Notes: generated by a model from the sequence alone, not told the origin. 64,000 bases of DNA from a virus (IMGVR_UViG_3300039159_000198), one strand, 5' to 3'. Shown: positions 2,389 through 57,837, numbered from the stretch's first letter. A program made the numbers and translations.

Positions 2389-3270
2389 ATGGAATATAAA
2401 TTAAATCTTACTAGTACCGAGAATAAAGATTTGACAGGTTATTGTAATCTTAATGATTTACTTATAAGTGAAATTATTAAAAAGTCTTATTTAAATGGAT
2501 TTCGGATTGAGAAATACGGTCTCTTATCAGATTTAGGAAAAATAGGTACAACTCATGAAAAACCGGTGGAAATTGAGGTCATTCGGGAAAAACGGGTAGA
2601 AGTTCCGGTTGAAGTGGTTAAAGAAGTTGTTAAGATTGAATATGTTGAGGTAATCAAAGAGGTTGAAAAAATAGTTGAGGTTATCCGGGAAGTTCCGGCA
2701 ACGCCAATTGAGATAGAAGTCATCAAATACGTTGATAGAGAGGTTATTAAAGAGGTGATTGTGGAAGTTCCTGTCTCAAATATAGAATATATTTACGACA
2801 AAAAAGAGGATGAAGTTGTAACAAATTTAGACAATATTTGTTACAAACCGGAAATAAATATTGATGACATAATTTTCCAACATAATGAGGAAATTAATGA
2901 TATTCGGTCAAAATTTTCCACTAAAGAGGAAGAAATGGTAAAAATTTTCCAGCAAGAGAAAGAAAAGGTTGACGAACTGTTGTTAAAAATACAACAGTTG
3001 GAAAATCAACCATCCAAAATAGTCGAAACAATTAAAGAGGTGATTGTGGAAAAGGAGGTTATAAAAGAAACCACTGATGATAAATTAAAACCTAAGTTGA
3101 ATGCTCTTCAAAATACGGTTCAAAAGTTAAAACTTGATAATATTGAAAAAGACAAGTTGATTAAAGAATATGAGAAAACAATTCAAGATATACAAAAGTT
3201 TAACGAAGGAACAAAAGCGATGTATATGAAAGGTTCCAATTTGGATGATGGACTTTATAAAAATAAATAA
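2389..3270 (+). CDS. hypothetical protein with V/I/E/K-rich repeats and coiled coil
   Basis: repeated EVIKEV/EVPVEV tracts; 293-aa ORF in operon context. Confidence 0.75.
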   Translation: MEYKLNLTSTENKDLTGYCNLNDLLISEIIKKSYLNGFRIEKYGLLSDLGKIGTTHEKPVEIEVIREKRVEVPVEVVKEVVKIEYVEVIKEVEKIVEVIREVPATPIEIEVIKYVDREVIKEVIVEVPVSNIEYIYDKKEDEVVTNLDNICYKPEINIDDIIFQHNEEINDIRSKFSTKEEEMVKIFQQEKEKVDELLLKIQQLENQPSKIVETIKEVIVEKEVIKETTDDKLKPKLNALQNTVQKLKLDNIEKDKLIKEYEKTIQDIQKFNEGTKAMYMKGSNLDDGLYKNK

Positions 3271-3291: not shown

Positions 3292-3639
3292 ATGACACAA
3301 TTAATATTATGGATGATTATTACTTACGGGTTAAGTAATATTGTGGTTTATGGGAGTATTTTCAATGGACCAAGAAATACAATAAAAAAATGGGGAGAAA
3401 ATGAGAAATATCCGTTTAGTGATTTTGGTAAATTCTTAACAAATATGATGGCATGTATGATGTGTTTTGGGTTTCATTGTGGGTGGTTTTTATCAATTTC
3501 GATATATTCACCTGTACACGAAATTCTTGGAGTATCTTCATGGTCATCTTGGTTTTTTGATGGGTTCTTGGCATCAGGAGCCGCTTGGATTATAAACTCA
3601 ATTGTAGAATGGTTTGAAGAAAATAGACCAACAAAATAA
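3292..3639 (+). CDS. membrane protein (possibly DUF1360-like)
   Basis: three hydrophobic segments and a CMMC motif. Confidence 0.65.
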   Translation: MTQLILWMIITYGLSNIVVYGSIFNGPRNTIKKWGENEKYPFSDFGKFLTNMMACMMCFGFHCGWFLSISIYSPVHEILGVSSWSSWFFDGFLASGAAWIINSIVEWFEENRPTK

Positions 3640-3640
3640 T

Positions 3641-4204
3641 ATGGAAAATAAGATAGGAGATTTTATTATTAAACAAATTGAGGATAAGAAGACTCAACGA
3701 TGGATTATCTCAAGTGATGACTTATTCACACTTTGTGGTAATATGGGTATTATTGATGACGATGACCTTATGATAAATGTTGTTGAGCACTTGGAAGAAA
3801 ATGAAATTGATGTGAATTTCCACGGTCAGAAATCTCCCGGTTTTTATCGTAGATGGAATGAAATTGAAAAGATGATTCTTTTTAAGAAAATAATGGATGG
3901 TACTAAAACAGAAACTCAATTAATGATGGAAAAAGTTGATTCTATCAAAGTTCCTGAAAGACCGGATTGGTTGAACTCTTATATGGACGATGAAGAGGTT
4001 AATGACGAAAGAATTATAACTGGTACAACTGAAAAACCAAATCAAAGAATTCTTGATATGATAACTAAAGAATTGACTGAAAGAATTAATAATGAACCGG
4101 GAATAACGATTGAGGAACTTCAACAAGAAATAAACAACGAAATGAATATTAATAATGGTAGAAATTCTGTGGGTAATATTCGTCATGTGTTAGGGTTAAT
4201 ATAA
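3641..4204 (+). CDS. hypothetical protein
   Basis: ATG at 3641 directly follows the upstream stop at 3639; in frame with track ORF 3614..4204. Confidence 0.7.
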   Translation: MENKIGDFIIKQIEDKKTQRWIISSDDLFTLCGNMGIIDDDDLMINVVEHLEENEIDVNFHGQKSPGFYRRWNEIEKMILFKKIMDGTKTETQLMMEKVDSIKVPERPDWLNSYMDDEEVNDERIITGTTEKPNQRILDMITKELTERINNEPGITIEELQQEINNEMNINNGRNSVGNIRHVLGLI

Positions 4205-5046: not shown

Positions 5047-5162
5047 AAATTGCTGAAGATAACGGATACAAAGTTTTAACTATTTGGGATTCTGAATATA
5101 GATGGGGAAATAAAGAAAAAGTTATAAAAAAATGTTTAAAGTTTTTAAAAAATGAAAATTAA
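5046..5162 (+). pseudogene. C-terminal remnant of a Vsr/DUF559-like homing endonuclease
   Basis: Frame from 5046 reads KIAEDNGYKVLTIWDSEYRWGNKEKVIKKCLKFLKNEN*, matching the GYKVLxIWxxE tail of Vsr-like nucleases; no start codon. Confidence 0.7.
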
Positions 5163-5517
5163 AATTGGGGAATTGTATGAAATTTACCAAAAATATGGTG
5201 ATTTAGGGTTTAAAGTTAATACACCATATGGGTATAAGAATATTGAATGGTGTGGTATCACAGAAAAAAATGCGGACATTTATAGGTGTGATTTGGAAAA
5301 CGGTATGTTTATTGAGGGTGCGGATTACCATAAATTAAAAAAAAATAATGATGGATTTACCGTTCTTAAAGAGCTCCAAATAGGAGAAAAAATACAAACA
5401 ATCGAAGGTTTAAGTTCAGTTAAAAACATTCAACTATTAGAAGAGAAAGACACTTTATATGATATTCAGGTAGAGGAGGTTCATCAATATTATTCTAATG
5501 GGATTGTATCACATAAT
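5152..5517 (+). mobile_element. split intein C-fragment (122 aa, no endonuclease domain)
   Basis: IEGADYHKL is block-B-like; block F/G ends His-Asn followed by Thr at 5518. Confidence 0.88.
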
Positions 5518-7371
5518 ACAGTTTTAACAGTCGATTTATTATTATTCCTATTCTTTAATACTACAACCAAAACACAAAGGGCTGAAGAAATTTTTAACAG
5601 ATTTACAGATAAGAATAAAGTAAGTGTTCGTGGAGAAATTTTAATTGATGGTGAGGAGTATATTATTGCTCGTCAAATTGAAAGAAAGATGTCCAAGTCC
5701 GGTGAATGGAATGTGAAAACAGAGTTGGAGTTCTTTAAACGATTATCTGACGGACAACTTCAAAATTTCACCGGAGAACAAAGACGGGAAACAGAAAACT
5801 TTATGAAGAAATCTATAGGTACTATGGATGACTTTTTAATGACCATTGTTACCACAGCGTCAAATCTTGAGGATTTATTGGATGCGAAACCAACTGCCAG
5901 AGGTCAGGTATTATCTAGGTTCTTAGGTTTGGAGTTTTTAAAGAAGAAAGAGGAAACCGGAAAAGAAATCTACTCAGAGTTCTCAAAGGGGATGATATCT
6001 AACATTTATAATACGGAAACCTTAAAACAAGAAAACGAAACCTCAACAACTGATATTGGAAGGTTAAAGGGTGAGATTACTGTGGCGGGTGATAATATCA
6101 CCGAGGTTGACCTATCTCTTAAAAAAGGTCAGGAATATAAGGAGGGGTTATTAAATTCAAAACATAGTGATTTACCTCAGGAACTTATTATTTTGAATCC
6201 GGACAAACTAAAGGAGGAAATTAATACTTATGTTACCAACAGTAAAACGATTCAAGTACAAATTGATAGTGTAAAAATTGTTGAACCAAGTGGGTTTTAT
6301 CATGAGGACAAACATGATGAGGTTAAAGAATTATTAACTAATCATAAAATTCAATTGGGTAATGTGACTCATAAGGTTGGTGAAATTGACTTAATGGTTA
6401 AAAAGTTTGGAGATGGTATTGAGTGTGAGCATTGTGGAATAAAATTGATGGATGCTGCTATCACCAAAAAGAAGATTAGTGAACTTGCGGGATTAAAAGA
6501 AGAGGTTAATATTCATAATAACTTGATTACAGAGTTAGACACTGAAGAAAAAACTTATGTCCAACTGAAAAAAGAGTTTGATGAGTATGAAAGAAACAAA
6601 CTTATCAAGGAGAAGTACGAGGTGTCTTTGGAGTCAAATGGGTTGAAATTAGACGCGGTAAGGTCTAAACTAACAAGATATGAGGAAGTTCAGGATAAGA
6701 TTAAACAGAACAACGATATTGAGACCAAATTGATTAAATCTAATCTTCGTATTGACGAGTTAATCAGTCAAAAACGAGGGTATGAGAGAATTCAAAGTGC
6801 CAATCAAAACCAAATTGATAATTTGATTGCTCGTATTGAAAAAAATAATGGTTTTGTATTGAAAATTGATGAGGAGTTTGAAAAAGAAAAAATCTATAAA
6901 ATCTATAACGAGATTTATGGCAAGAATGGAATTAGTAAAATAATCATGAAAACGATGATGCCCGTGATTAACTCGGAACTTCAAAGGTTACTTCAGGATT
7001 CCTGTTATTTTAACTTGGAGATTCGTATTAATGATAAGAATGAGGTTGAATTTATTATGGTTGATAACTCAACAGGTATTGAGAAATTAATGATGTCAGG
7101 TTCCGGATATGAAAGAACAATTGCATCACTGGCTCTTAGGGCGGTATTAACCAAGGTTTGTTCATTACCAAAACCAAACTTGGTGGCGTTCGACGAAGTA
7201 TTTTCAAAAATTAGTAATGATAATCTCGAAATGGTTGGGGAGTTTTTTAGTAAGTTAAAAGATTATTTTCCAAAAATATTTGTTATTACTCATAACCCGT
7301 TGGTTGGGAATTGGGCGAATAACATTGTCAAGATTACTAAAACCGATAATGTTTCAAAAGTCTCACAATAA
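5152..7371 (+). CDS. split-intein IntC fused to the SbcC/Rad50/gp46-like ATPase C-terminal part
   Basis: Intein end YDIQVEEVHQYYSNGIVSHN then +1 Thr; coiled coil; CEHC zinc hook; MSGSGYE signature; AFDEVF Walker B; ITH switch. Confidence 0.92.
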   Translation: MKIKIGELYEIYQKYGDLGFKVNTPYGYKNIEWCGITEKNADIYRCDLENGMFIEGADYHKLKKNNDGFTVLKELQIGEKIQTIEGLSSVKNIQLLEEKDTLYDIQVEEVHQYYSNGIVSHNTVLTVDLLLFLFFNTTTKTQRAEEIFNRFTDKNKVSVRGEILIDGEEYIIARQIERKMSKSGEWNVKTELEFFKRLSDGQLQNFTGEQRRETENFMKKSIGTMDDFLMTIVTTASNLEDLLDAKPTARGQVLSRFLGLEFLKKKEETGKEIYSEFSKGMISNIYNTETLKQENETSTTDIGRLKGEITVAGDNITEVDLSLKKGQEYKEGLLNSKHSDLPQELIILNPDKLKEEINTYVTNSKTIQVQIDSVKIVEPSGFYHEDKHDEVKELLTNHKIQLGNVTHKVGEIDLMVKKFGDGIECEHCGIKLMDAAITKKKISELAGLKEEVNIHNNLITELDTEEKTYVQLKKEFDEYERNKLIKEKYEVSLESNGLKLDAVRSKLTRYEEVQDKIKQNNDIETKLIKSNLRIDELISQKRGYERIQSANQNQIDNLIARIEKNNGFVLKIDEEFEKEKIYKIYNEIYGKNGISKIIMKTMMPVINSELQRLLQDSCYFNLEIRINDKNEVEFIMVDNSTGIEKLMMSGSGYERTIASLALRAVLTKVCSLPKPNLVAFDEVFSKISNDNLEMVGEFFSKLKDYFPKIFVITHNPLVGNWANNIVKITKTDNVSKVSQ

Positions 7372-32803: not shown

Positions 32804-34714
32804 ATGATAGAAACAGGAAAAATAATAAATGGGGACTGTGTTGAGGTTATGAAAACATTACCTGAAGGTTGTATCGACCTTTTGTGTACGTCACCGCCAT
32901 ATTCAGTTAACGTCAAATATGATGTTTATGATGATACAATACCTATGGATGAGTATTGGAAATTTACAACAGATTGGTTATCGGAGGCGTTTAGAGTTTT
33001 AAAAGACGATGGTAGGATTGCGGTTAATGTTCCTATTGAGACTAATGTTCAAGAACGAGGTGGAAGAATACTATTCAATGCTGAGTTTTGGATGAGAATG
33101 AAGGAAGTTGGATTCCAATTTTTTGGAATGGTTGATTTATCTGAAGATTCTCCACATAGGGTTAGACAAACCGCGTGGGGTTGTTACGATAATGAGACTA
33201 AAGTTATGACAAATAATGGACTTAAATTTTTTAAAGATGTTGATATTGAAACAGATTTGTTTATGACTTTAAACCCCATAACAAAAGAAATTGAATATCA
33301 AAAAGCCTTTGATTATATTGAAAAACCATTTAAGGGTAAGTTGGTAAATATTAAATCTCGCTCTATTAATCTTACGATAACTGAAAACCATAATATGGTT
33401 AGAATTAATAATTCTGAGATAGATATTATACCGTTTAATGAAATAAAACAAGAAACTTTTACTATACCTAGAAAACATAATGGGTTGAAAAATTATGTGG
33501 ATGTGGAAACAATTGTTATACCCCCTGTTGAATATGGGTTGAGAACTAAAAAAATATATAGAAATGAAAATTCATTAATTGTTGATACTGATGATTGGTT
33601 GAGATTTTTGGGGATTTTTTTAACAGATGGTTCATTAACATATGACGTTAAACGAGGTATATATAAAATTTCTATTTATCAAACAAAAACAAATTTTTTA
33701 AAAGAAATTGAAGATTTATTAGAAAGATTACCATTTAATTTTGAATATAAAAAACAAAAAAACGAATATTATTGTTGTTCAAAACAATTAGCGTCATTTT
33801 TACTTGACACTAAAAGTAAAAATTTAAGAACAATACCTGATTATGTTTTTAGTATGTCTAAAAGACAAAAAGAAATATTATTATTATGGTTATTTTATGG
33901 TGATGGTTCTTTTACAAAAAATAATGAATTGTGGAAAATTTCTGTATGTAGTGAAATAATGAAAGACCAAATTATTAGATTATTATTTGAGTCGGGAAGA
34001 ATTTGTTCATTGTATAGTTACTATCCAAAAGATAGGGTTTGGAATGGTAAATTGATTAAATCTAATTATCCAATGACGACTATACAAGTTCTTAATAAAG
34101 AACAAACATATGTGAAGAAAAAAAATATTACAATGGTTGATTATGATGATAAAGTTTATTGTGTGTCAGTACCAAATAAAACATTATTAGTTGAAAAATC
34201 CGGTCAATTAGTTTGGTGCGGTAATTCATGGATGAGTGCTTCCAGTCCTTACATCTATAATCCAAAAGAATGTGTGATACTTGCTTATAAGAAATCTAAA
34301 AAGAAATTAGAAAAAGGTGAGTCTCAATGGTTCGGTACACCAACTAAAATAGTTTTAGAAGATGGGACTTTAAAGAATAAAGTGGTTTATGAGGATGAAG
34401 ATAAGAAAGACTTTATGAATTTGGTGTTTGGTAGATGGGATTATTTTGCGGATACTAAATCATTAACTAAAGCCACGTTTAGTATGGATATACCAACTAA
34501 GGCAATTAAGATTTTATCATATAAAAATGATATTGTTCTTGACCCATTCAATGGGTCGGGAACTAGTTGTTTGGCTGCTGAGATACTTGGAAGAAAGTGG
34601 ATAGGGATAGAATTGAGTGAAGAGTATAGTAAAATTGCTAGAAATAGAATTTTAGAATATCAAGTTAAAACAACCCAAACAGAATTAGAGTTTAAAGAGA
34701 ATTATAAGTTATAG
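32804..34714 (+). CDS. DNA methyltransferase (N4-C/N6-A, beta class) containing an intein
   Basis: TSPPY and DPFNGSGT exteins flank a 348-aa intein. Confidence 0.92.
   Translation: MIETGKIINGDCVEVMKTLPEGCIDLLCTSPPYSVNVKYDVYDDTIPMDEYWKFTTDWLSEAFRVLKDDGRIAVNVPIETNVQERGGRILFNAEFWMRMKEVGFQFFGMVDLSEDSPHRVRQTAWGCYDNETKVMTNNGLKFFKDVDIETDLFMTLNPITKEIEYQKAFDYIEKPFKGKLVNIKSRSINLTITENHNMVRINNSEIDIIPFNEIKQETFTIPRKHNGLKNYVDVETIVIPPVEYGLRTKKIYRNENSLIVDTDDWLRFLGIFLTDGSLTYDVKRGIYKISIYQTKTNFLKEIEDLLERLPFNFEYKKQKNEYYCCSKQLASFLLDTKSKNLRTIPDYVFSMSKRQKEILLLWLFYGDGSFTKNNELWKISVCSEIMKDQIIRLLFESGRICSLYSYYPKDRVWNGKLIKSNYPMTTIQVLNKEQTYVKKKNITMVDYDDKVYCVSVPNKTLLVEKSGQLVWCGNSWMSASSPYIYNPKECVILAYKKSKKKLEKGESQWFGTPTKIVLEDGTLKNKVVYEDEDKKDFMNLVFGRWDYFADTKSLTKATFSMDIPTKAIKILSYKNDIVLDPFNGSGTSCLAAEILGRKWIGIELSEEYSKIARNRILEYQVKTTQTELEFKENYKL
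33182..34225 (+). mobile_element. intein with LAGLIDADG endonuclease (348 aa)
   Basis: Starts CYDNETKVMT; TENH block B; GIFLTDGS and LFYGDGS LAGLIDADG motifs; ends VYCVSVPNKT...WCGN with +1 Ser. Confidence 0.92.
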
Positions 34715-40994: not shown

Positions 40995-42455
40995 ATGATA
41001 TTGACTAAAGAAATCGAAATTCGAATTGCCGGTAATGGGTATAACTACTACCGAGAAAATAATATTGACGTAATACCGAATAAGGTGAATAGAATTTCTA
41101 TTGAAATGGTTAACCCAAAAAGTCATTTTATTATTGATGCAAAATGTGATATTTGTGGTAAAGAAGTGAAGGTTCAGTTGAGAAGATATAATCAATCTTT
41201 CAATAATGGGGGATATTATACTTGTTCTTCAAGATGTGGTACAGAAAAAAGAAAAATGACTTTCAATAATAAATATGGGTGTGAAATTCCATTCAAGACA
41301 GATAATTTTAAGGAAAAAACAAAACAAAGTATGTTGGAAAAATATGGTTCGACACATTTTAGACAAAGTAATGTTTGGAAACTTAAAAATTTGAAAAATG
41401 AAAAAAAAATAAGGAAAGACACAATATTTCAAAATTTTTTAATTGAGAACCCTTCTATTATTGGTCAAAATGAGGATAATTTTATTGTTAAATGTGAAAT
41501 ACATGGGGAAAATAAAATTCCTAAAAAAATATTTTCAAACCGAAAAAAAATTGGTACAGAGTTATGTGTAATATGTAAACCAATCGAAAGTAATATTTCG
41601 GGTAAAGAAGTTTTATTATTTAAATTAATAAAAGAAATTTATGATGGAGAAATTATTAAATCATATAAAATTAAAAGGAAAGAAATTGATGTTTTTTTAC
41701 CAGAATTAAATATTGGTTTTGAATTTAATGGGTTGTATTGGCATTCTAATAAATTTCTCGATAATAATTATCATATTGAAAAAACAATATTGTGTGAAAA
41801 AAATAAAATTAGGTTAGTTCATATTTTTGAAGATGATTTTGACAATAAAAATGATATAGTAAAATCGATTGTTATGAATATTTTAGGTAAAACAACTAAA
41901 ATATTTGGAAGAAAAACTGAGGTAAAAAAGATAAGTTCAAATAATGATGTGAAAGATTTTTTAATAAAAAATCACTTACAGGGGTTTGTTAATAGTAATA
42001 TTAATTATGGGTTATATTATAATAATGAGTTGGTTTCGATAATGACGTTTATGAAAAGTCGAAAAATATTAGGGGGTGAATATGGTGATGGGAATTATGA
42101 ACTTGTTAGGTTTTGTAACAAATTAAATTACAGTGTTGTAGGTGGAGCGTCTAAATTATTTAAACATTTTGTTAGTGAATATTCACCAAAAAATGTGACA
42201 TCATATTGTGATATTTCATGGGGTAGTGGTAATTTATACGAAAAAATAGGTATGAAATACGAAGGGTTAACAAAACCTAATTATCATTATGTTATTGATG
42301 GTAAAAGAGAAAGCCGCATTAAATATCAAAAACATAAATTAGTTAAACAGGGGTTTAGTAAAGACAAGACTGAAAAACAAATTATGGATGAACGGGGTAT
42401 TTATAGTGTATATAATTGTGGTAATAAGATATATAGGTTCTATAATTTAAATTAG
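40995..42455 (+). CDS. homing-endonuclease-like protein (zinc fingers, PD-(D/E)XK-like core, GNAT-like C-terminus)
   Basis: CDICG, CSSRC, EIDVFLPELNIGFEFNGLYWHS, VVGGASKL, SYCDISW. Confidence 0.75.
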   Translation: MILTKEIEIRIAGNGYNYYRENNIDVIPNKVNRISIEMVNPKSHFIIDAKCDICGKEVKVQLRRYNQSFNNGGYYTCSSRCGTEKRKMTFNNKYGCEIPFKTDNFKEKTKQSMLEKYGSTHFRQSNVWKLKNLKNEKKIRKDTIFQNFLIENPSIIGQNEDNFIVKCEIHGENKIPKKIFSNRKKIGTELCVICKPIESNISGKEVLLFKLIKEIYDGEIIKSYKIKRKEIDVFLPELNIGFEFNGLYWHSNKFLDNNYHIEKTILCEKNKIRLVHIFEDDFDNKNDIVKSIVMNILGKTTKIFGRKTEVKKISSNNDVKDFLIKNHLQGFVNSNINYGLYYNNELVSIMTFMKSRKILGGEYGDGNYELVRFCNKLNYSVVGGASKLFKHFVSEYSPKNVTSYCDISWGSGNLYEKIGMKYEGLTKPNYHYVIDGKRESRIKYQKHKLVKQGFSKDKTEKQIMDERGIYSVYNCGNKIYRFYNLN

Positions 42456-43229: not shown

Positions 43230-43446
43230 TAAAAAATAAATCGACTTTTGGTAATGTTATGTGATATTTATTATCTCACGGTTCGAGAGAACCAAAACAC
43301 CCCAAACAAAAATTTCATAAAAAATTTGATAGTGTCGAAACTATTTTTATCCCTTATGAAATATATATTCCACAGATGTATTTTTGAGAAAATTTATATT
43401 TGTGGATTTTTTTTGTTTTATGTTTGGTAGATTAAAAAAAAAGTAT

Positions 43447-43454
43447 TATCTTTG
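43447..43454 (+). promoter_or_regulatory. Bacteroidota-type -7 promoter element
   Basis: TATCTTTG upstream of ORF 43478 and the first RNA elements. Confidence 0.6.
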
Positions 43455-43477
43455 TATCGGATTTAAAACTAAACATT

Positions 43478-43663
43478 ATGGAAGGTAAATTATTATGGTG
43501 GGGTTATAAATACACCTCAGGAACCTATCAGGCAAAACGATATTTTGATAAATTGGATATTCAAGAAGCCAACGAAAGCCCTTTTTGTGAAATGGTTGTT
43601 GGACCATTTGAGTCGAAAACCCGAGATGAGGCATTAAAAATTGTAGAACAACTAACAAATTAA
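43478..43663 (+). CDS. hypothetical protein
   Basis: 61-aa ORF downstream of a promoter. Confidence 0.65.
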   Translation: MEGKLLWWGYKYTSGTYQAKRYFDKLDIQEANESPFCEMVVGPFESKTRDEALKIVEQLTN

Positions 43664-43670
43664 AAAAAAA

Positions 43671-43733
43671 TAACCTGTACCCCTGAAAAACTCGTATATA
43701 AGGATAAGCAGGTTAGCTCGAAATAAAGGGGTA
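43671..43733 (+). ncRNA. candidate H-type pseudoknot RNA
   Basis: TAACCTG(43671-77)/CAGGTTA(43709-15) interleaved with TACCCCT(43678-84)/AGGGGTA(43727-33); both are perfect 7-bp helices. Confidence 0.5.
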
Positions 43734-43751
43734 AGAGAATAAGAGTAAAAT

Positions 43752-43820
43752 AGTCAGGTGGTGTGTGGCGCACTGAGGAGGTCACACTTCGTAGAATAGG
43801 TTCGATTCCTGTCCTGACTA
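43752..43820 (+). tRNA. tRNA-like RNA, anticodon undetermined (69 nt)
   Basis: Acceptor AGTCAGG/CCTGACT; T-arm ATAGG-TTCGATT-CCTGT; 5-nt D-loop; 8-nt loop AGGTCACA without U33; no CCA. Confidence 0.65.
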
Positions 43821-43870
43821 CAAAAATTAAAAAAAAATGTTAAAGTATTGACAGAGTGAAATAAAAGTAT

Positions 43871-43878
43871 TATCTTTG
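43871..43878 (+). promoter_or_regulatory. Bacteroidota-type -7 promoter element
   Basis: TATCTTTG directly upstream of the permuted tRNA-like RNA. Confidence 0.65.
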
Positions 43879-43900
43879 TAGAAGAAATAAAGTTCTTAAA

Positions 43901-44010
43901 AATATTGAAAATTTAGTGTGGGTGTTGTGTCGACCGGTTAAATTCCGTCCTTGTGTATCTTGATGAAAAGCAAGTAGCTCAGTGTTAGAGCATACACTCA
44001 CTAAAATATT
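43901..44010 (+). ncRNA. circularly permuted tRNA-like RNA (YrlA/Y-RNA-like topology)
   Basis: Terminal stem TTTAGTG/CACTAAA enclosing, in order, a T-arm (43932-49), a loop-closed acceptor-like stem CTTG/CAAG, and a D-arm GCTC-AGTGTTA-GAGC (43977-91). Confidence 0.65.
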
Positions 44011-44155
44011 CTAATTACAAGTTTAGGTCCGTAGGGCTGTTATGGTATGTGAGGAAAATGACTACGGGACAAACATACAACTGTACGAAATAAAGCAGAG
44101 GTCCTTCGCATTTAATGTATTACTGAAAAATGTAATCACCATAACAAGTTAGAAT
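44008..44155 (+). ncRNA. candidate pseudoknotted structured RNA (~150 nt)
   Basis: Closing stem TTCTAATT/AGTTAGAA; hairpin 44021-44074 whose loop TGTTATGGT pairs 9/9 with ACCATAACA (44138-46). Confidence 0.5.
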
Positions 44156-44160
44156 TAAAT

Positions 44161-44251
44161 GGTATTGTAGCTCAGTGGGAGATTCGTCTTCCTTGGTAGA
44201 GCAAGAGTAACGAAAGACTCCGTGCCGTAGGTTCGAACCCTACCGATACCT
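44161..44251 (+). tRNA. tRNA-like RNA with a D-loop hairpin insertion, anticodon non-canonical (91 nt)
   Basis: Acceptor GGTATTG/CGATACC; T-arm GTAGG-TTCGAAC-CCTAC; D-loop carries GGGAGA-TTCG-TCTTCC; 8-nt loop AACGAAAG; no CCA. Confidence 0.75.
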
Positions 44252-44273
44252 CTGAAAAAAAAATAAAAAAAAG

Positions 44274-44305
44274 TTTGACAATTCAAATAAGTTTACTTAC
44301 CTTTG
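44274..44305 (+). promoter_or_regulatory. Bacteroidota-type promoter (-33/-7)
   Basis: TTTG(44274-77), 20-nt spacer, TACCTTTG(44298-305). Confidence 0.7.
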
Positions 44306-44312
44306 TCAAAGA

Positions 44313-44368
44313 TTTAAGAAACAGGTTGACAGGGTCGTAAAACGTTGTATAGTTTTCCTCTTCTTAAA
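44313..44368 (+). ncRNA. candidate small RNA (three-way junction)
   Basis: TTTAAGAA/TTCTTAAA ends pair; internal hairpins GAC/GTC and AAAAC/GTTTT; starts at the expected TSS of the promoter above. Confidence 0.35.
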
Positions 44369-44410
44369 AAAAAAATAAAATAAAATTTGACTTTTAGATT
44401 TAATGTCTTA

Positions 44411-44418
44411 TATTTATT
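44411..44418 (+). promoter_or_regulatory. putative phage late promoter motif
   Basis: TATTTATT immediately before the large RNA. Confidence 0.45.
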
Positions 44419-44419
44419 A

Positions 44420-45310
44420 AACACTTCGGAGAGATACCGAATACGTTCTTAGAAATTATTGTATTATCCATTATGACACTTCGGTGTTGTAAAAAAATGA
44501 TAATCGGCGGTATATCGTCGTTAAATAAATTGATGAAAATCAATATAAACCAAACTTAGTTGTGTTATTAAGTTTGGGGCTTCTGAAAGGGAGCTCGAGT
44601 ATACAAGCGAGATATCAGTGAACCTGTATTACCGAGGATGACTTCGTAGGGAAATGGATTACTGAACAGGCAATGTGGGTGTCTGTTTGAGGTTGGAAAA
44701 CCAAAAAAAATAACTCGTAGAAACTCTGTGAGAAATAAGATTATCCAATCTTATAATTGCGGGTTTCAAAATTAGAGTTGAGTTAAAACTGAAAAGTAAG
44801 ATAAAGAACGAGTGGTGTCGATTTTATCCTTATCAAATATCTACCAAGATGTTGATATGAACTACACTTGAAATTTCGTAATGGGGACATTACACGGAGG
44901 AGGTTAGTATCTTATTGTCCAAAAGATAACGAGGCTTACGACAGACCCCTTCTTCGACACATCCACAACACAATTACTATTTTCAATATGGTGAAAAACT
45001 AAAAAGATATATAGCAAAAGTGTCTGTCAGTCGTAGATGACAAGGTGACTACTTAGTTATGGGCCGTCCATAGCACACAAAGACCGCAAGTTTATGTGTA
45101 TTCTTACCAAAAACCTCTAATCCCGCAAGGATTAATCAGTTCGCAAGATTGAAGAGAGTGTAGTAATAAGAGAGTAATTTACGACTCGAGGAGTGATTGG
45201 TCTAACCAATCGTCACTGAGGATTACATCCCAAAAGGGTGTGGATATAAAGGGAACTAATAATCCTTTTAAAGATTCTCAATAATAGGTTTAATCTCAAC
45301 CTAATTAGCC
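44420..45310 (+). ncRNA. large ornate ncRNA, GOLLD-like (~890 nt)
   Basis: ORF-free and relatively GC-rich; many GNRA/UUCG hairpins (GACAC-TTCG-GTGTT, TTGAT-GAAA-ATCAA, three tandem CGCAAG hairpins); long-range pairs such as GTGTCGA/TCGACAC; bounded by a promoter and terminator; beside tRNA-like genes. The GOLLD assignment is from recalled resemblance only. Confidence 0.6.
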
Positions 45311-45345
45311 AAAAAGGTAACACATTTATTTGTGTTACCTTTTTT
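45311..45345 (+). terminator. intrinsic terminator
   Basis: AAAAAGGTAACACA/TGTGTTACCTTTTT 14-bp perfect stem. Confidence 0.85.
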
Positions 45346-45366
45346 TGTTTATATCAATTTTTATAT

Positions 45367-45374
45367 TATCTTTG
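45367..45374 (+). promoter_or_regulatory. Bacteroidota-type -7 promoter element
   Basis: TATCTTTG 5 nt before smpB. Confidence 0.55.
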
Positions 45375-45378
45375 TCGT

Positions 45379-45813
45379 ATGAAAACATCTATAAACATAA
45401 TAAACAAAAAGGTCAAATTTGAATATGAATTTATCCAAACAGAAATTGCGGGAATTTCATTAAAAGGAAGTGAAATAAAATCAATCCGTCAGGGGAAGGT
45501 ATCCATCTCCGAGAGTTATTGTTATTTTAATAATGGTGAGTTATTTGTTAAGAGTATGAATATCTCCGATTATGGTTATGGGTCATTCCACGAGACAACT
45601 CGGGATAGAAAGTTATTACTTAAAAGAAAAGAATTAAACGATTTGGAGTCAAAACTAATCAATGGACTTACAATCATCCCCTACCGATTATTCACCAATG
45701 ATAAAGGATTAATTAAGATGGAGATTTGTTTATCAAGAGGTAAGAAACTTTACGATAAAAGAAATAGTATTAAGTCTCGGGATATTGACCGGGATATAAA
45801 AAGAAACGAATAA
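45379..45813 (+). CDS. smpB: SsrA(tmRNA)-binding protein SmpB
   Basis: INKKVKFEY, AGISLKGSEIKSIR, RDRKLLLK..EL, LTIIPYRLF, RGKKLYDKR. Confidence 0.93.
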   Translation: MKTSINIINKKVKFEYEFIQTEIAGISLKGSEIKSIRQGKVSISESYCYFNNGELFVKSMNISDYGYGSFHETTRDRKLLLKRKELNDLESKLINGLTIIPYRLFTNDKGLIKMEICLSRGKKLYDKRNSIKSRDIDRDIKRNE

Positions 45814-57117: not shown

Positions 57118-57837
57118 ATGAGAAAATTTAAAGAATATTTAGTAGGTGGTGCGGTTAGAGATGAAATTTTAGGCCTTTCAAATAAAGATTTGGATTACGT
57201 ATTCGTGTTTGAAGATTTGGATGAAACTCAAACTGCTGATGAATGTTTTAATGAAATGTATAAGAATATTCAAGAAAGAGGGGAGATATTTCTATCAACA
57301 CCAAGTTGCTATACTATTAGGTATAAAGATAAGGTAACCAAAGAAATTAAAGACGTTGTAATGGCTCGTAAGGAGATTGGTTACATTCCGGGAACAAGAA
57401 CACCAATCGTTAAACCGGGAACATTATATGATGACCTTGAAAGAAGGGACGCGACATTAAACGCGTTGGCAAAAGATGAGAATGGAACTATCATTGATTA
57501 CTTCAATGGATTGACTCACTTGAAGGAGGGTATTTTGAGAACACCATTAGACCCGATTAAAACTTTTGATGACGATTCACTTAGAGTCATCAGATTCATC
57601 AGATTTTCTATTACCAAAGGATTTACAATTCCTGGCGATATTAATAGAGTGATTCAAAAATACGATTACGATAATAAAATGGGTGTTGTTTCGACTGAAA
57701 GAATCCGTGAGGAATTATTAAAGTGTTTCAAACACAATACTATGGATACTTTGGATATGTTAAATGAATTTCCAACTTTGAAAAGATATATTTTTGAGAA
57801 TAAATTAATGTGGTTAAAACCTACAATGGAACAATAA
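57118..57837 (+). CDS. class II tRNA nucleotidyltransferase / poly(A) polymerase family protein (compact)
   Basis: YLVGGAVRD, DLDY, DLERRDATLNA, DDSLRVIRFIRF. Confidence 0.88.
   Translation: MRKFKEYLVGGAVRDEILGLSNKDLDYVFVFEDLDETQTADECFNEMYKNIQERGEIFLSTPSCYTIRYKDKVTKEIKDVVMARKEIGYIPGTRTPIVKPGTLYDDLERRDATLNALAKDENGTIIDYFNGLTHLKEGILRTPLDPIKTFDDDSLRVIRFIRFSITKGFTIPGDINRVIQKYDYDNKMGVVSTERIREELLKCFKHNTMDTLDMLNEFPTLKRYIFENKLMWLKPTMEQ

Follow-up and report, generated by a model that had tools for sequence, protein, structure and literature searches.

What are tRNA-shaped RNAs without a decoding loop doing just upstream of smpB, in a region almost free of protein genes? The question is raised by positions 43,230 to 45,813 of a 64,000-nucleotide (nt) stretch of DNA from the virus IMGVR_UViG_3300039159_000198, here called the window. 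An initial annotation had described eight elements in this region, and all of them were recovered in place. We refer to the smaller RNAs as E1 (a leader block), E2 (a minimal tRNA-shaped RNA), E3 (a circularly permuted tRNA-shaped module), E4 (a multi-pseudoknot RNA), E5 (a cloverleaf with a hairpin in its D-loop), and E6 (a small hairpin RNA). The ornate RNA of ~890 nt that follows them proved to be real and to be GOLLD (Rfam RF02032, 317.3 bits). The same annotation had noted only one open reading frame (ORF), of 61 amino acids, in ~2.1 kb; it was borne out as a real gene, ORF61, and is the sole credible protein gene between 43230 and 45378. We conclude that the locus is a noncoding RNA island made up of GOLLD, a row of E3, E4, and E5 behind one promoter, and E2 behind the leader E1 (Table 1). 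A search based on SmpB retrieved 44 related viral loci, on contigs of up to 321 kb, and about 18 of them share the order E3, E4 if present, E5, E6 if present, GOLLD, and smpB. Positions 1356 to 60108 of the window are collinear with G001, a 309-kb viral contig that CheckV rates as complete.

In order to gauge covariation, we counted the pairs that had changed on both sides in alignments of distinct sequences, with column shuffles and shifted partners as controls. The cloverleaf and D-loop hairpin of E5 (91 nt) were 96.9% paired, compared with 93.4% in column shuffles and 43 to 52% with shifted partners, and the 14 distinct homologs contained seven compensatory pairs. E5 has kept intact acceptor, D, and T arms; 13 of the 14 copies carry A at the discriminator position, and the D-loop has a 20-nt excess, with a 16-nt UUCG hairpin of 6 bp. 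The loop in the anticodon position is 8 nt long in all 14 copies and ends with GAAAG in the window. The three nucleotides in front of the invariant GAAA vary, with AA, CU, CC, or UU at positions 32 and 33, so that U33 is not conserved. E5 scores as a cloverleaf but lacks the 7-nt anticodon loop with U33 and a readable anticodon that a tRNA would have. An isotype comparison with 148 phage tRNAs placed Asn and Trp best and Phe sixth; a label of "Phe-like" would thus reflect the GAA triplet only. Anticodon loops of eight nucleotides also occur in frameshift-suppressor tRNAs, which E5 resembles in its intact cloverleaf and in the length of the loop. Unlike them, it has no conserved U33, could form a GAAA tetraloop capped by a Y-G pair, and carries the 16-nt hairpin in its D-loop. 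In other phage tRNA arrays (L113:383-509 and L076:5-121), we also noted RNAs with canonical acceptor, D, and T arms (48 to 53 bits) in which a long or branched extension replaces the anticodon loop.

E3 is built in the order outer stem, variable loop, T-arm, capped acceptor-like stem, D-arm, and outer stem, a topology that leaves it without an anticodon loop. Among 13 distinct homologs, the outer, T, acceptor-like, and D stems were 98% paired, compared with 87% in shuffles, and seven pairs had changes on both sides. The D-loop and T-loop letters that correspond by analogy to positions 19 and 56 are G-C in one group of homologs and U-A in the window's group, with one intermediate; this co-switch fits a preserved, tRNA-like elbow. 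The initial annotation had regarded the tRNA-shaped RNAs as nondecoders and not as decaying tRNAs, a view that the pairing of E3 and E5 upholds. The RNAs are selected for shape yet have no decoding loop, and random decay is therefore excluded.

E3 and E5 are conserved in ~20 related phage contigs. In the window, each lies within ~6 nt of E4, and in relatives that do not have E4 they adjoin one another, 3 to 13 nt apart. Of the 13 further distinct relatives listed, 9 have the promoter block of the row in front of E3 as well. In three relatives, a second permuted module (model R2, 41 to 50 bits) abuts the 3' end of E5 (L013:4668-4762, L004:4889-4985, and L045:4171-4268); the window does not have this second copy.

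The permuted order is reminiscent of the YrlA RNAs. In these, the tRNA-like module has the order V, T-arm, AS stem-loop, and D-arm, and a GNCGAAN0-1G motif lies near the 5' end; the genes lie no more than 4 kb from a Ro60/TROVE gene of the same orientation, and the M. smegmatis YrlA is cleaved by RNase P and has CCA added (PMC4201824). According to the alignment and pair counts, E3 has the same module order, with canonical T- and D-arms and with a closing stem in place of the anticodon stem. The YrlA model (RF02553) matches full-length at 43902-44021, but the score is 25.6 bits, with the threshold at 69, and the E-values are 0.017 for 3 kb and 0.36 for 64 kb. The GNCGAAN0-1G motif is absent from the 5' region of E3, and there is no CGAA in 43881-43925 or in the leaders of relatives. 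No TROVE domain was detected among the 30 window proteins scanned, and no Ro60/TROVE gene was detected in four complete relatives, including the collinear G001. Because these four relatives have no such gene, E3 is not a YrlA in the defined sense. A further difference is that E3 is joined head-to-tail to a second tRNA-shaped RNA. Elsewhere, weak permuted tRNA-like modules were seen in L113 and L111, where the complete genome concerned, G008, likewise has no TROVE gene. One phage that bears E4 does encode a TROVE/Ro60-like protein (72.5 bits; G011, the record of L118, at 214082-214933), unlike the relatives of the window.

E2 is more reduced. Its predicted fold comprises a 7-bp acceptor stem, a single hairpin, and a T-arm, with neither a D-arm nor an anticodon arm, and its score of 26 bits is below the Rfam tRNA threshold (RF00005) of 29. 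It is the smallest member of a paralogous family of 12 distinct RNAs of 69 to 114 nt, which have the acceptor stem and T-arm in common and very different cores. E1, which precedes it, is followed by a tRNA-shaped non-tRNA in every one of the six other viral contigs in which it occurs, and in some of these contigs E1 overlaps the end of an ORF. A candidate pseudoknot can be drawn for E1 (43673-77 pairing with 43709-13 and 43680-84 with 43727-31); the folding z-score is -1.66, and the block is nearly invariant, leaving no variation by which the candidate could be judged.

Strong covariation was found for E4 (146 nt), which is present in some relatives and absent from others. A degenerate 17-mer taken from its core, followed by profile filtering, recovered ~60 loci with 40 distinct sequences, and a covariance model aligned all 40 (77 to 130 bits). 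The fold comprises seven helices, two of them crossing (pseudoknotted). It was 93.8% paired, compared with 70% in column shuffles and 36 to 48% with shifted partners, and 29 of 37 pairs had changed on both sides. A six-pair pseudoknot helix that had been left out of the aligning model was 98.3% paired, with every pair covarying. One site between helices tolerates inserts of up to ~57 nt among the sequences found. The copies in the window and four other loci had no family match in Rfam 15, a literature search with the core string returned unrelated primer sequences only, and a blastn search of cultured phages with two other variants gave no match. The 91-nt core of E4 shared 80% identity with a stretch without annotation in the cultured Flavobacterium psychrophilum phage FpV4 and in 28 similar records, ~430 nt 5' of a transfer-messenger RNA (tmRNA) that is likewise unannotated. 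In FpV4 (L001, KT876724.1), the E4-family RNA lies at 2985-3130 and the tmRNA at 3518-3932 (Rfam, 58 bits; tag frame ending in VAVAA), both in a 2.3-kb stretch that bears no annotated features and is common to the 28 similar records.

Copies of E4 in tRNA arrays are on the same strand as the tRNAs and 4 to 50 nt away from them. For 46 E4 loci, many of which are close relatives of one another, the downstream sequence extended to 1.2 kb or more. In ~32 of these loci, a GOLLD 3' domain begins 516 to 1133 nt 3' of E4 on the same strand, with E4 ending ~40 to 650 nt before the GOLLD 5' domain. Copies of E4 without GOLLD also occur, both in FpV4 and in plain tRNA arrays. We conclude from the alignments that E4 represents a widespread phage RNA family without an Rfam entry. 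The initial annotation was correct that the RNA at 44008 is a structured, pseudoknotted one, which is real and strongly covarying, and had missed its membership in a widespread family tied to tRNA arrays and GOLLD. The nearest functional analogy for E2 and E4 is provided by the T4 species 1 and 2 RNAs (rnaC and rnaD; NC_000866 annotation), which are stable non-tRNA RNAs encoded in the phage tRNA cluster, immediately adjacent to a tRNA and in the same orientation; the 3' end of rnaC forms a hairpin that resembles a T-arm. There is no kinship in sequence or structure between these RNAs and E4: with filters off, the E4 model (R1) gave no match at rnaC or rnaD, and its best hit elsewhere had an E-value of 1.8.

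The RF02032 match at 44895-45302 exceeds its threshold of 150 bits and covers model positions 1 to 416 of 416, and the 5' domain (44418-44894) has homologs in ~30 loci. The model alignment places an A-rich linker at ~44960-45015. These features indicate that 44418-45302 is a genuine GOLLD with its own predicted promoter and terminator. Members of the GOLLD class self-assemble into a 14-mer cage. A study of the nanocage by cryo-electron microscopy reported that the linker can carry tRNAs and faces the cage interior, proposed encapsulation, and noted that GOLLD lies beside tRNA genes in phages (10.1101/2024.12.08.627333). The window RNA shares with that class the variable 5' domain, the linker, the conserved 3' domain, and the location in a phage near tRNA-type genes. 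It differs in that its neighbors are nondecoding tRNA derivatives and an uncatalogued pseudoknot RNA, not tRNAs, and in that, within the window's lineage, GOLLD lies 5' of smpB (~28 of the 44 loci) and, for most members, of a tmRNA. No functional link between GOLLD and SmpB was found in the literature searched.

Contigs from four metatranscriptome libraries matched relatives of the island. The GOLLD region of relatives was covered by several of them and E1 by one. A single 368-nt contig covered E3, E4, and E5 of a relative, and another linked E6 with the GOLLD 5' domain of a relative. No contig fell on ORF61 and hardly any on smpB, a lack of coverage that does not bear on the relative expression of these genes.

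The position of the RNAs next to smpB had suggested that they might be ribosome-rescue partners, and this proposal was not upheld. In 28 relatives, a canonical tmRNA is located 96 to 2229 nt 3' of smpB on the opposite strand; ARAGORN read a tag peptide for three of the 28. In G001, the tmRNA is at 218 kb (50.6 bits), a copy of the island with three odd tRNA-like genes is at 23 to 28 kb, and 23 canonical tRNAs, including tRNA-Phe(GAA), are found at 229 to 243 kb, more than 100 kb from the island and in separate arrays. Within the 64-kb window, neither ARAGORN nor Rfam RF00023/RF04321 (threshold, 47 bits; also E-values of up to 0.5) revealed a tmRNA, and nhmmer searches with the tmRNAs of L010, L030, FpV4, and G001 found none. 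Because the two genomes are collinear, the equivalents of the G001 tmRNA and tRNA arrays would lie outside the window. Based on the tmRNAs of the relatives and the distant tmRNA and tRNAs of G001, the most likely partner for the SmpB of the window is a canonical tmRNA from another part of the genome, and the tRNA-shaped RNAs of the island are not the decoders of the phage. The initial annotation had itself named the binding of SmpB to only a canonical tmRNA encoded elsewhere as an outcome that would speak against its proposal; for the rescue branch, the tmRNA genes of the relatives count as that outcome. SmpB with tmRNA is already known from huge phages (PMC7162821), and SmpB homologs were found in 67 phage records, including the Lak megaphages. 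The window resembles these systems in having a regular smpB and relatives with a tmRNA beside it; it differs in having no tmRNA in 64 kb and, in G001, in the separation of smpB and tmRNA by more than 100 kb. E3 and E4 were also considered as the two pieces of a permuted tmRNA, and this was rejected: the acceptor-like stem has 4 to 5 bp and is capped, there is no CCA, no plausible tag frame was seen by eye, and there is no tmRNA_permuted match.

The absence of an encoded CCA from the tRNA-shaped RNAs, another of the original observations, stands as described and is uninformative, since the canonical tRNAs of G001 also have none. The window does encode, at 57118-57837 (+), a protein of 239 amino acids whose PolyA_pol head domain (PF01743, 64 bits) has the fold shared by poly(A) polymerases and CCA-adding enzymes; this protein could supply the CCA that the tRNA and tRNA-like genes of the phage do not encode.

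What, then, are the tRNA shapes for? The explanation that we favor, at even chances of being right, is that the modules are handles for RNA processing and that smpB is a mere neighbor by synteny. Host RNase P, 3' trimming, and CCA addition would act at the borders of the tRNA-shaped modules to cut the precursors, with the PolyA_pol-type nucleotidyltransferase possibly serving as the phage's own enzyme in such processing. The cuts would release and stabilize the RNAs embedded in the precursors (E4, possibly together with the GOLLD leader) and would yield stable L-shaped RNAs able to engage factors that recognize the elbow or acceptor end of tRNAs, with no part in decoding. SmpB would belong to a phage translation module and work with the canonical tmRNA encoded elsewhere. 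We take as support the occurrence of E4 in tRNA arrays, its tight flanking by E3 and E5, the abutting of E3 and E5 where E4 is absent, the second permuted module at the 3' end of E5, the nucleotidyltransferase head domain, and the RNA-library contig spanning E3, E4, and E5. The T4 tRNA-cluster RNAs and the processing of M. smegmatis YrlA (PMC4201824) are precedents.

Several observations weigh against this explanation. E3 and E5 are kept even where E4 is absent, and punctuation can therefore account for their function only in part. In E5, the invariant GAAA(G) and the conserved D-loop arm point to a specific partner that the handle model does not name; together with the linkage of E4 to GOLLD, they leave room for what may be a more specific role with GOLLD. 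The single-sequence folding z-scores of the island elements range from -0.07 to -1.66, and none is significant. The RNA-library contigs come from relatives and may include DNA carry-over, and they speak for presence only, not for ends, strands, or levels. Finally, the genome's own tmRNA is not among the 64 kb covered by the window.

Other roles were weighed against processing. It is possible, although on balance we doubt it, that the GOLLD nanocage has the tRNA-shaped RNAs, and conceivably E4 as well, as its partners or cargo, which would either dock with it (e.g., through the GAAA loop of E5) or be enclosed like the linker tRNAs. The order E3-E5-GOLLD in ~18 loci, the frequent occurrence of the GOLLD 3' domain downstream of E4, and the inward-facing linker tRNAs with their proposed encapsulation (10.1101/2024.12.08.627333) are all consistent with this notion. 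Every RNA here has its own promoter, however, E4 is also found where there is no GOLLD, and the synteny may simply have been inherited within one phage lineage. A bolder proposal, which we likewise consider rather doubtful, is that E4 is a new functional RNA class, a ribozyme or specific cofactor, which with the permuted and D-arm-extended modules and GOLLD would form an RNA-only machine of large phages, acting on the host tRNA/ribosome pool. If this is true, the linkage of E4 with GOLLD would be the first handle on the function of the cage. Phage tRNAs that counter tRNA-targeting defenses are well established, and the RNAs of the island might be decoys or uncuttable stand-ins that soak up such defenses (anticodon nucleases or acceptor-end modifiers) through their elbow and acceptor features. 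Such a role would account for the conservation of the shape alongside a changed or absent anticodon loop, which nucleases usually target, and for a paralog family with a constant acceptor stem and T-arm around a variable core. We consider it unlikely, given that an anticodon nuclease needs the very loop that these RNAs lack and that the scans of window proteins identified no defense or counterdefense gene beside the island.

E5 taken singly could be a chargeable special-purpose tRNA with the anticodon (Y)GAA, used to decode a quadruplet codon or as an amino acid donor away from the ribosome. Its intact arms, its nearly constant discriminator A, the invariance of GAA and the following A in all 14 copies, and the precedent of frameshift suppressors with 8-nt loops would suit such a role. 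The idea is nevertheless improbable: U33 is not conserved, the Y-G pair around GAAA fits a capped tetraloop equally well, the isotype comparison does not single out Phe, and G001 already has a canonical tRNA-Phe. Still less can be said for an anticodon-less tRNA mimic acting as the SmpB partner in the manner of a reduced or split tmRNA. The start of smpB 77 nt past the GOLLD match and the failure to find a tmRNA in the window invite this reading, which is rendered very improbable by the full tmRNAs beside smpB in 28 relatives and at 218 kb in G001, by the short, capped acceptor-like stem of E3 with neither CCA nor tag frame, by the lack of an Rfam tmRNA or permuted-tmRNA match, and by the spacing of GOLLD and smpB, which in relatives ranges between 30 nt and 4 kb. 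That the elements are ordinary tRNAs decaying at random, or chance folds, would agree with the unremarkable single-sequence folding energies and with the score of E2 below the tRNA threshold. It is contradicted by the covariation counts, with every helix kept by compensatory changes and the odd features constant over 13 to 40 distinct sequences, and we assign it practically no probability.

Neither the proximity of GOLLD to tRNAs nor SmpB in phages is new; the novelty here lies in the set of tRNA-derived modules and the E4 pseudoknot family. Neither the E4 family, nor the E3-E5 tandem in phages without Ro, nor the E2 family with its constant acceptor stem and T-arm, nor the recurrent placement of these RNAs with GOLLD was found in Rfam or the literature searched. 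Few bacterial or phage RNAs of solved structure are as large as GOLLD. In one phage lineage, it has been kept together with conserved nondecoding tRNA derivatives, and E4 is a second strongly covarying RNA, which often travels with GOLLD, tRNA arrays, or tmRNA across many phages. The island thus gives concrete candidate partners for GOLLD, contributes at least one RNA family not yet catalogued, and extends Y-RNA-like permuted tRNA modules to phages without a Ro protein. Because a copy of E4 sits in the cultured phage FpV4, whose host is a fish pathogen, ordinary laboratory tests are possible.

Table 1. Features of the RNA island and smpB, with positions counted from the first letter of the window
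Feature	Position	Strand	Basis or remarks
Promoter motif 5' of ORF61	43423..43454	+	TTTG-N-TAnnTTTG match
ORF61, 61-amino-acid protein gene	43478..43663	+	Kept in L010 and L023; third-codon-position bias
E1, conserved leader block	43673..43745	+	Near-identical in 6 other viral contigs
E2, minimal tRNA-shaped RNA	43752..43820	+	ARAGORN; Rfam tRNA, 26 bits; predicted fold
Promoter of E3-E4-E5 precursor (TTGACA ... TATCTTTG)	43848..43878	+	Block shared with relatives
E3, circularly permuted tRNA-shaped module	43912..44008	+	YrlA match; homolog alignment; model R2, 75.8 bits
E4, multi-pseudoknot RNA	44009..44154	+	Model R1, 125 bits; optional insert between E3 and E5
E5, cloverleaf RNA	44161..44251	+	Rfam tRNA, 37 bits (threshold, 29); ARAGORN; 14 distinct homologs
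Promoter motif 5' of E6	44274..44305	+	Motif match
E6, small hairpin RNA or GOLLD 5' leader	44312..44369	+	Kept in 6 relatives; one compensatory pair
GOLLD RNA	44418..45302	+	5' domain, ~44418-44894; linker and 3' domain, 44895-45302
GOLLD intrinsic terminator	45311..45344	+	14-bp stem, then T run
smpB	45379..45813	+	Pfam SmpB PF01668, 157.4 bits, profile positions 3-140 of 143; promoter motif 45344-45374

The window is part of an uncultured jumbo phage of ~300 kb. It has ~30% G+C, and nearly all of its genes are on one strand. The Bacteroidota-type promoter motif TTTG...TAnnTTTG is enriched (15 matches, compared with 6.4 expected), and the closest deposited phages by SmpB are the Prevotella Lak megaphages (47% identity). 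Since both the promoter motifs and the SmpB relatives point there, the host probably belongs to the Bacteroidota.

With regard to the protein gene of the island, 22 of the 34 differences between ORF61 and its relatives in L010 and L023 are at third codon positions, and ORF61 had neither a Pfam nor a PHROG match. The spacer ahead of it (43230-43420) is noncoding and conserved, with 80% identity to L047, L049, L051, and L052. It holds a T-arm-like hairpin, GGTTC-GAGA-GAACC, at 43281-43294, as well as a terminator-like hairpin with a T run ahead of the ORF61 promoter.

A large protein of the HNH/homing-endonuclease type is encoded at 40995-42455 (+) (phrog_3339; E-value, 1e-101), just 5' of a NUDIX gene and the RNA island. 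Intein-splicing matches were found in both an SbcC/Rad50-like protein (5152-7371) and an N6/N4 DNA methylase (32804-34714), the latter with LAGLIDADG matches in addition, which suggests that both genes are interrupted by inteins.

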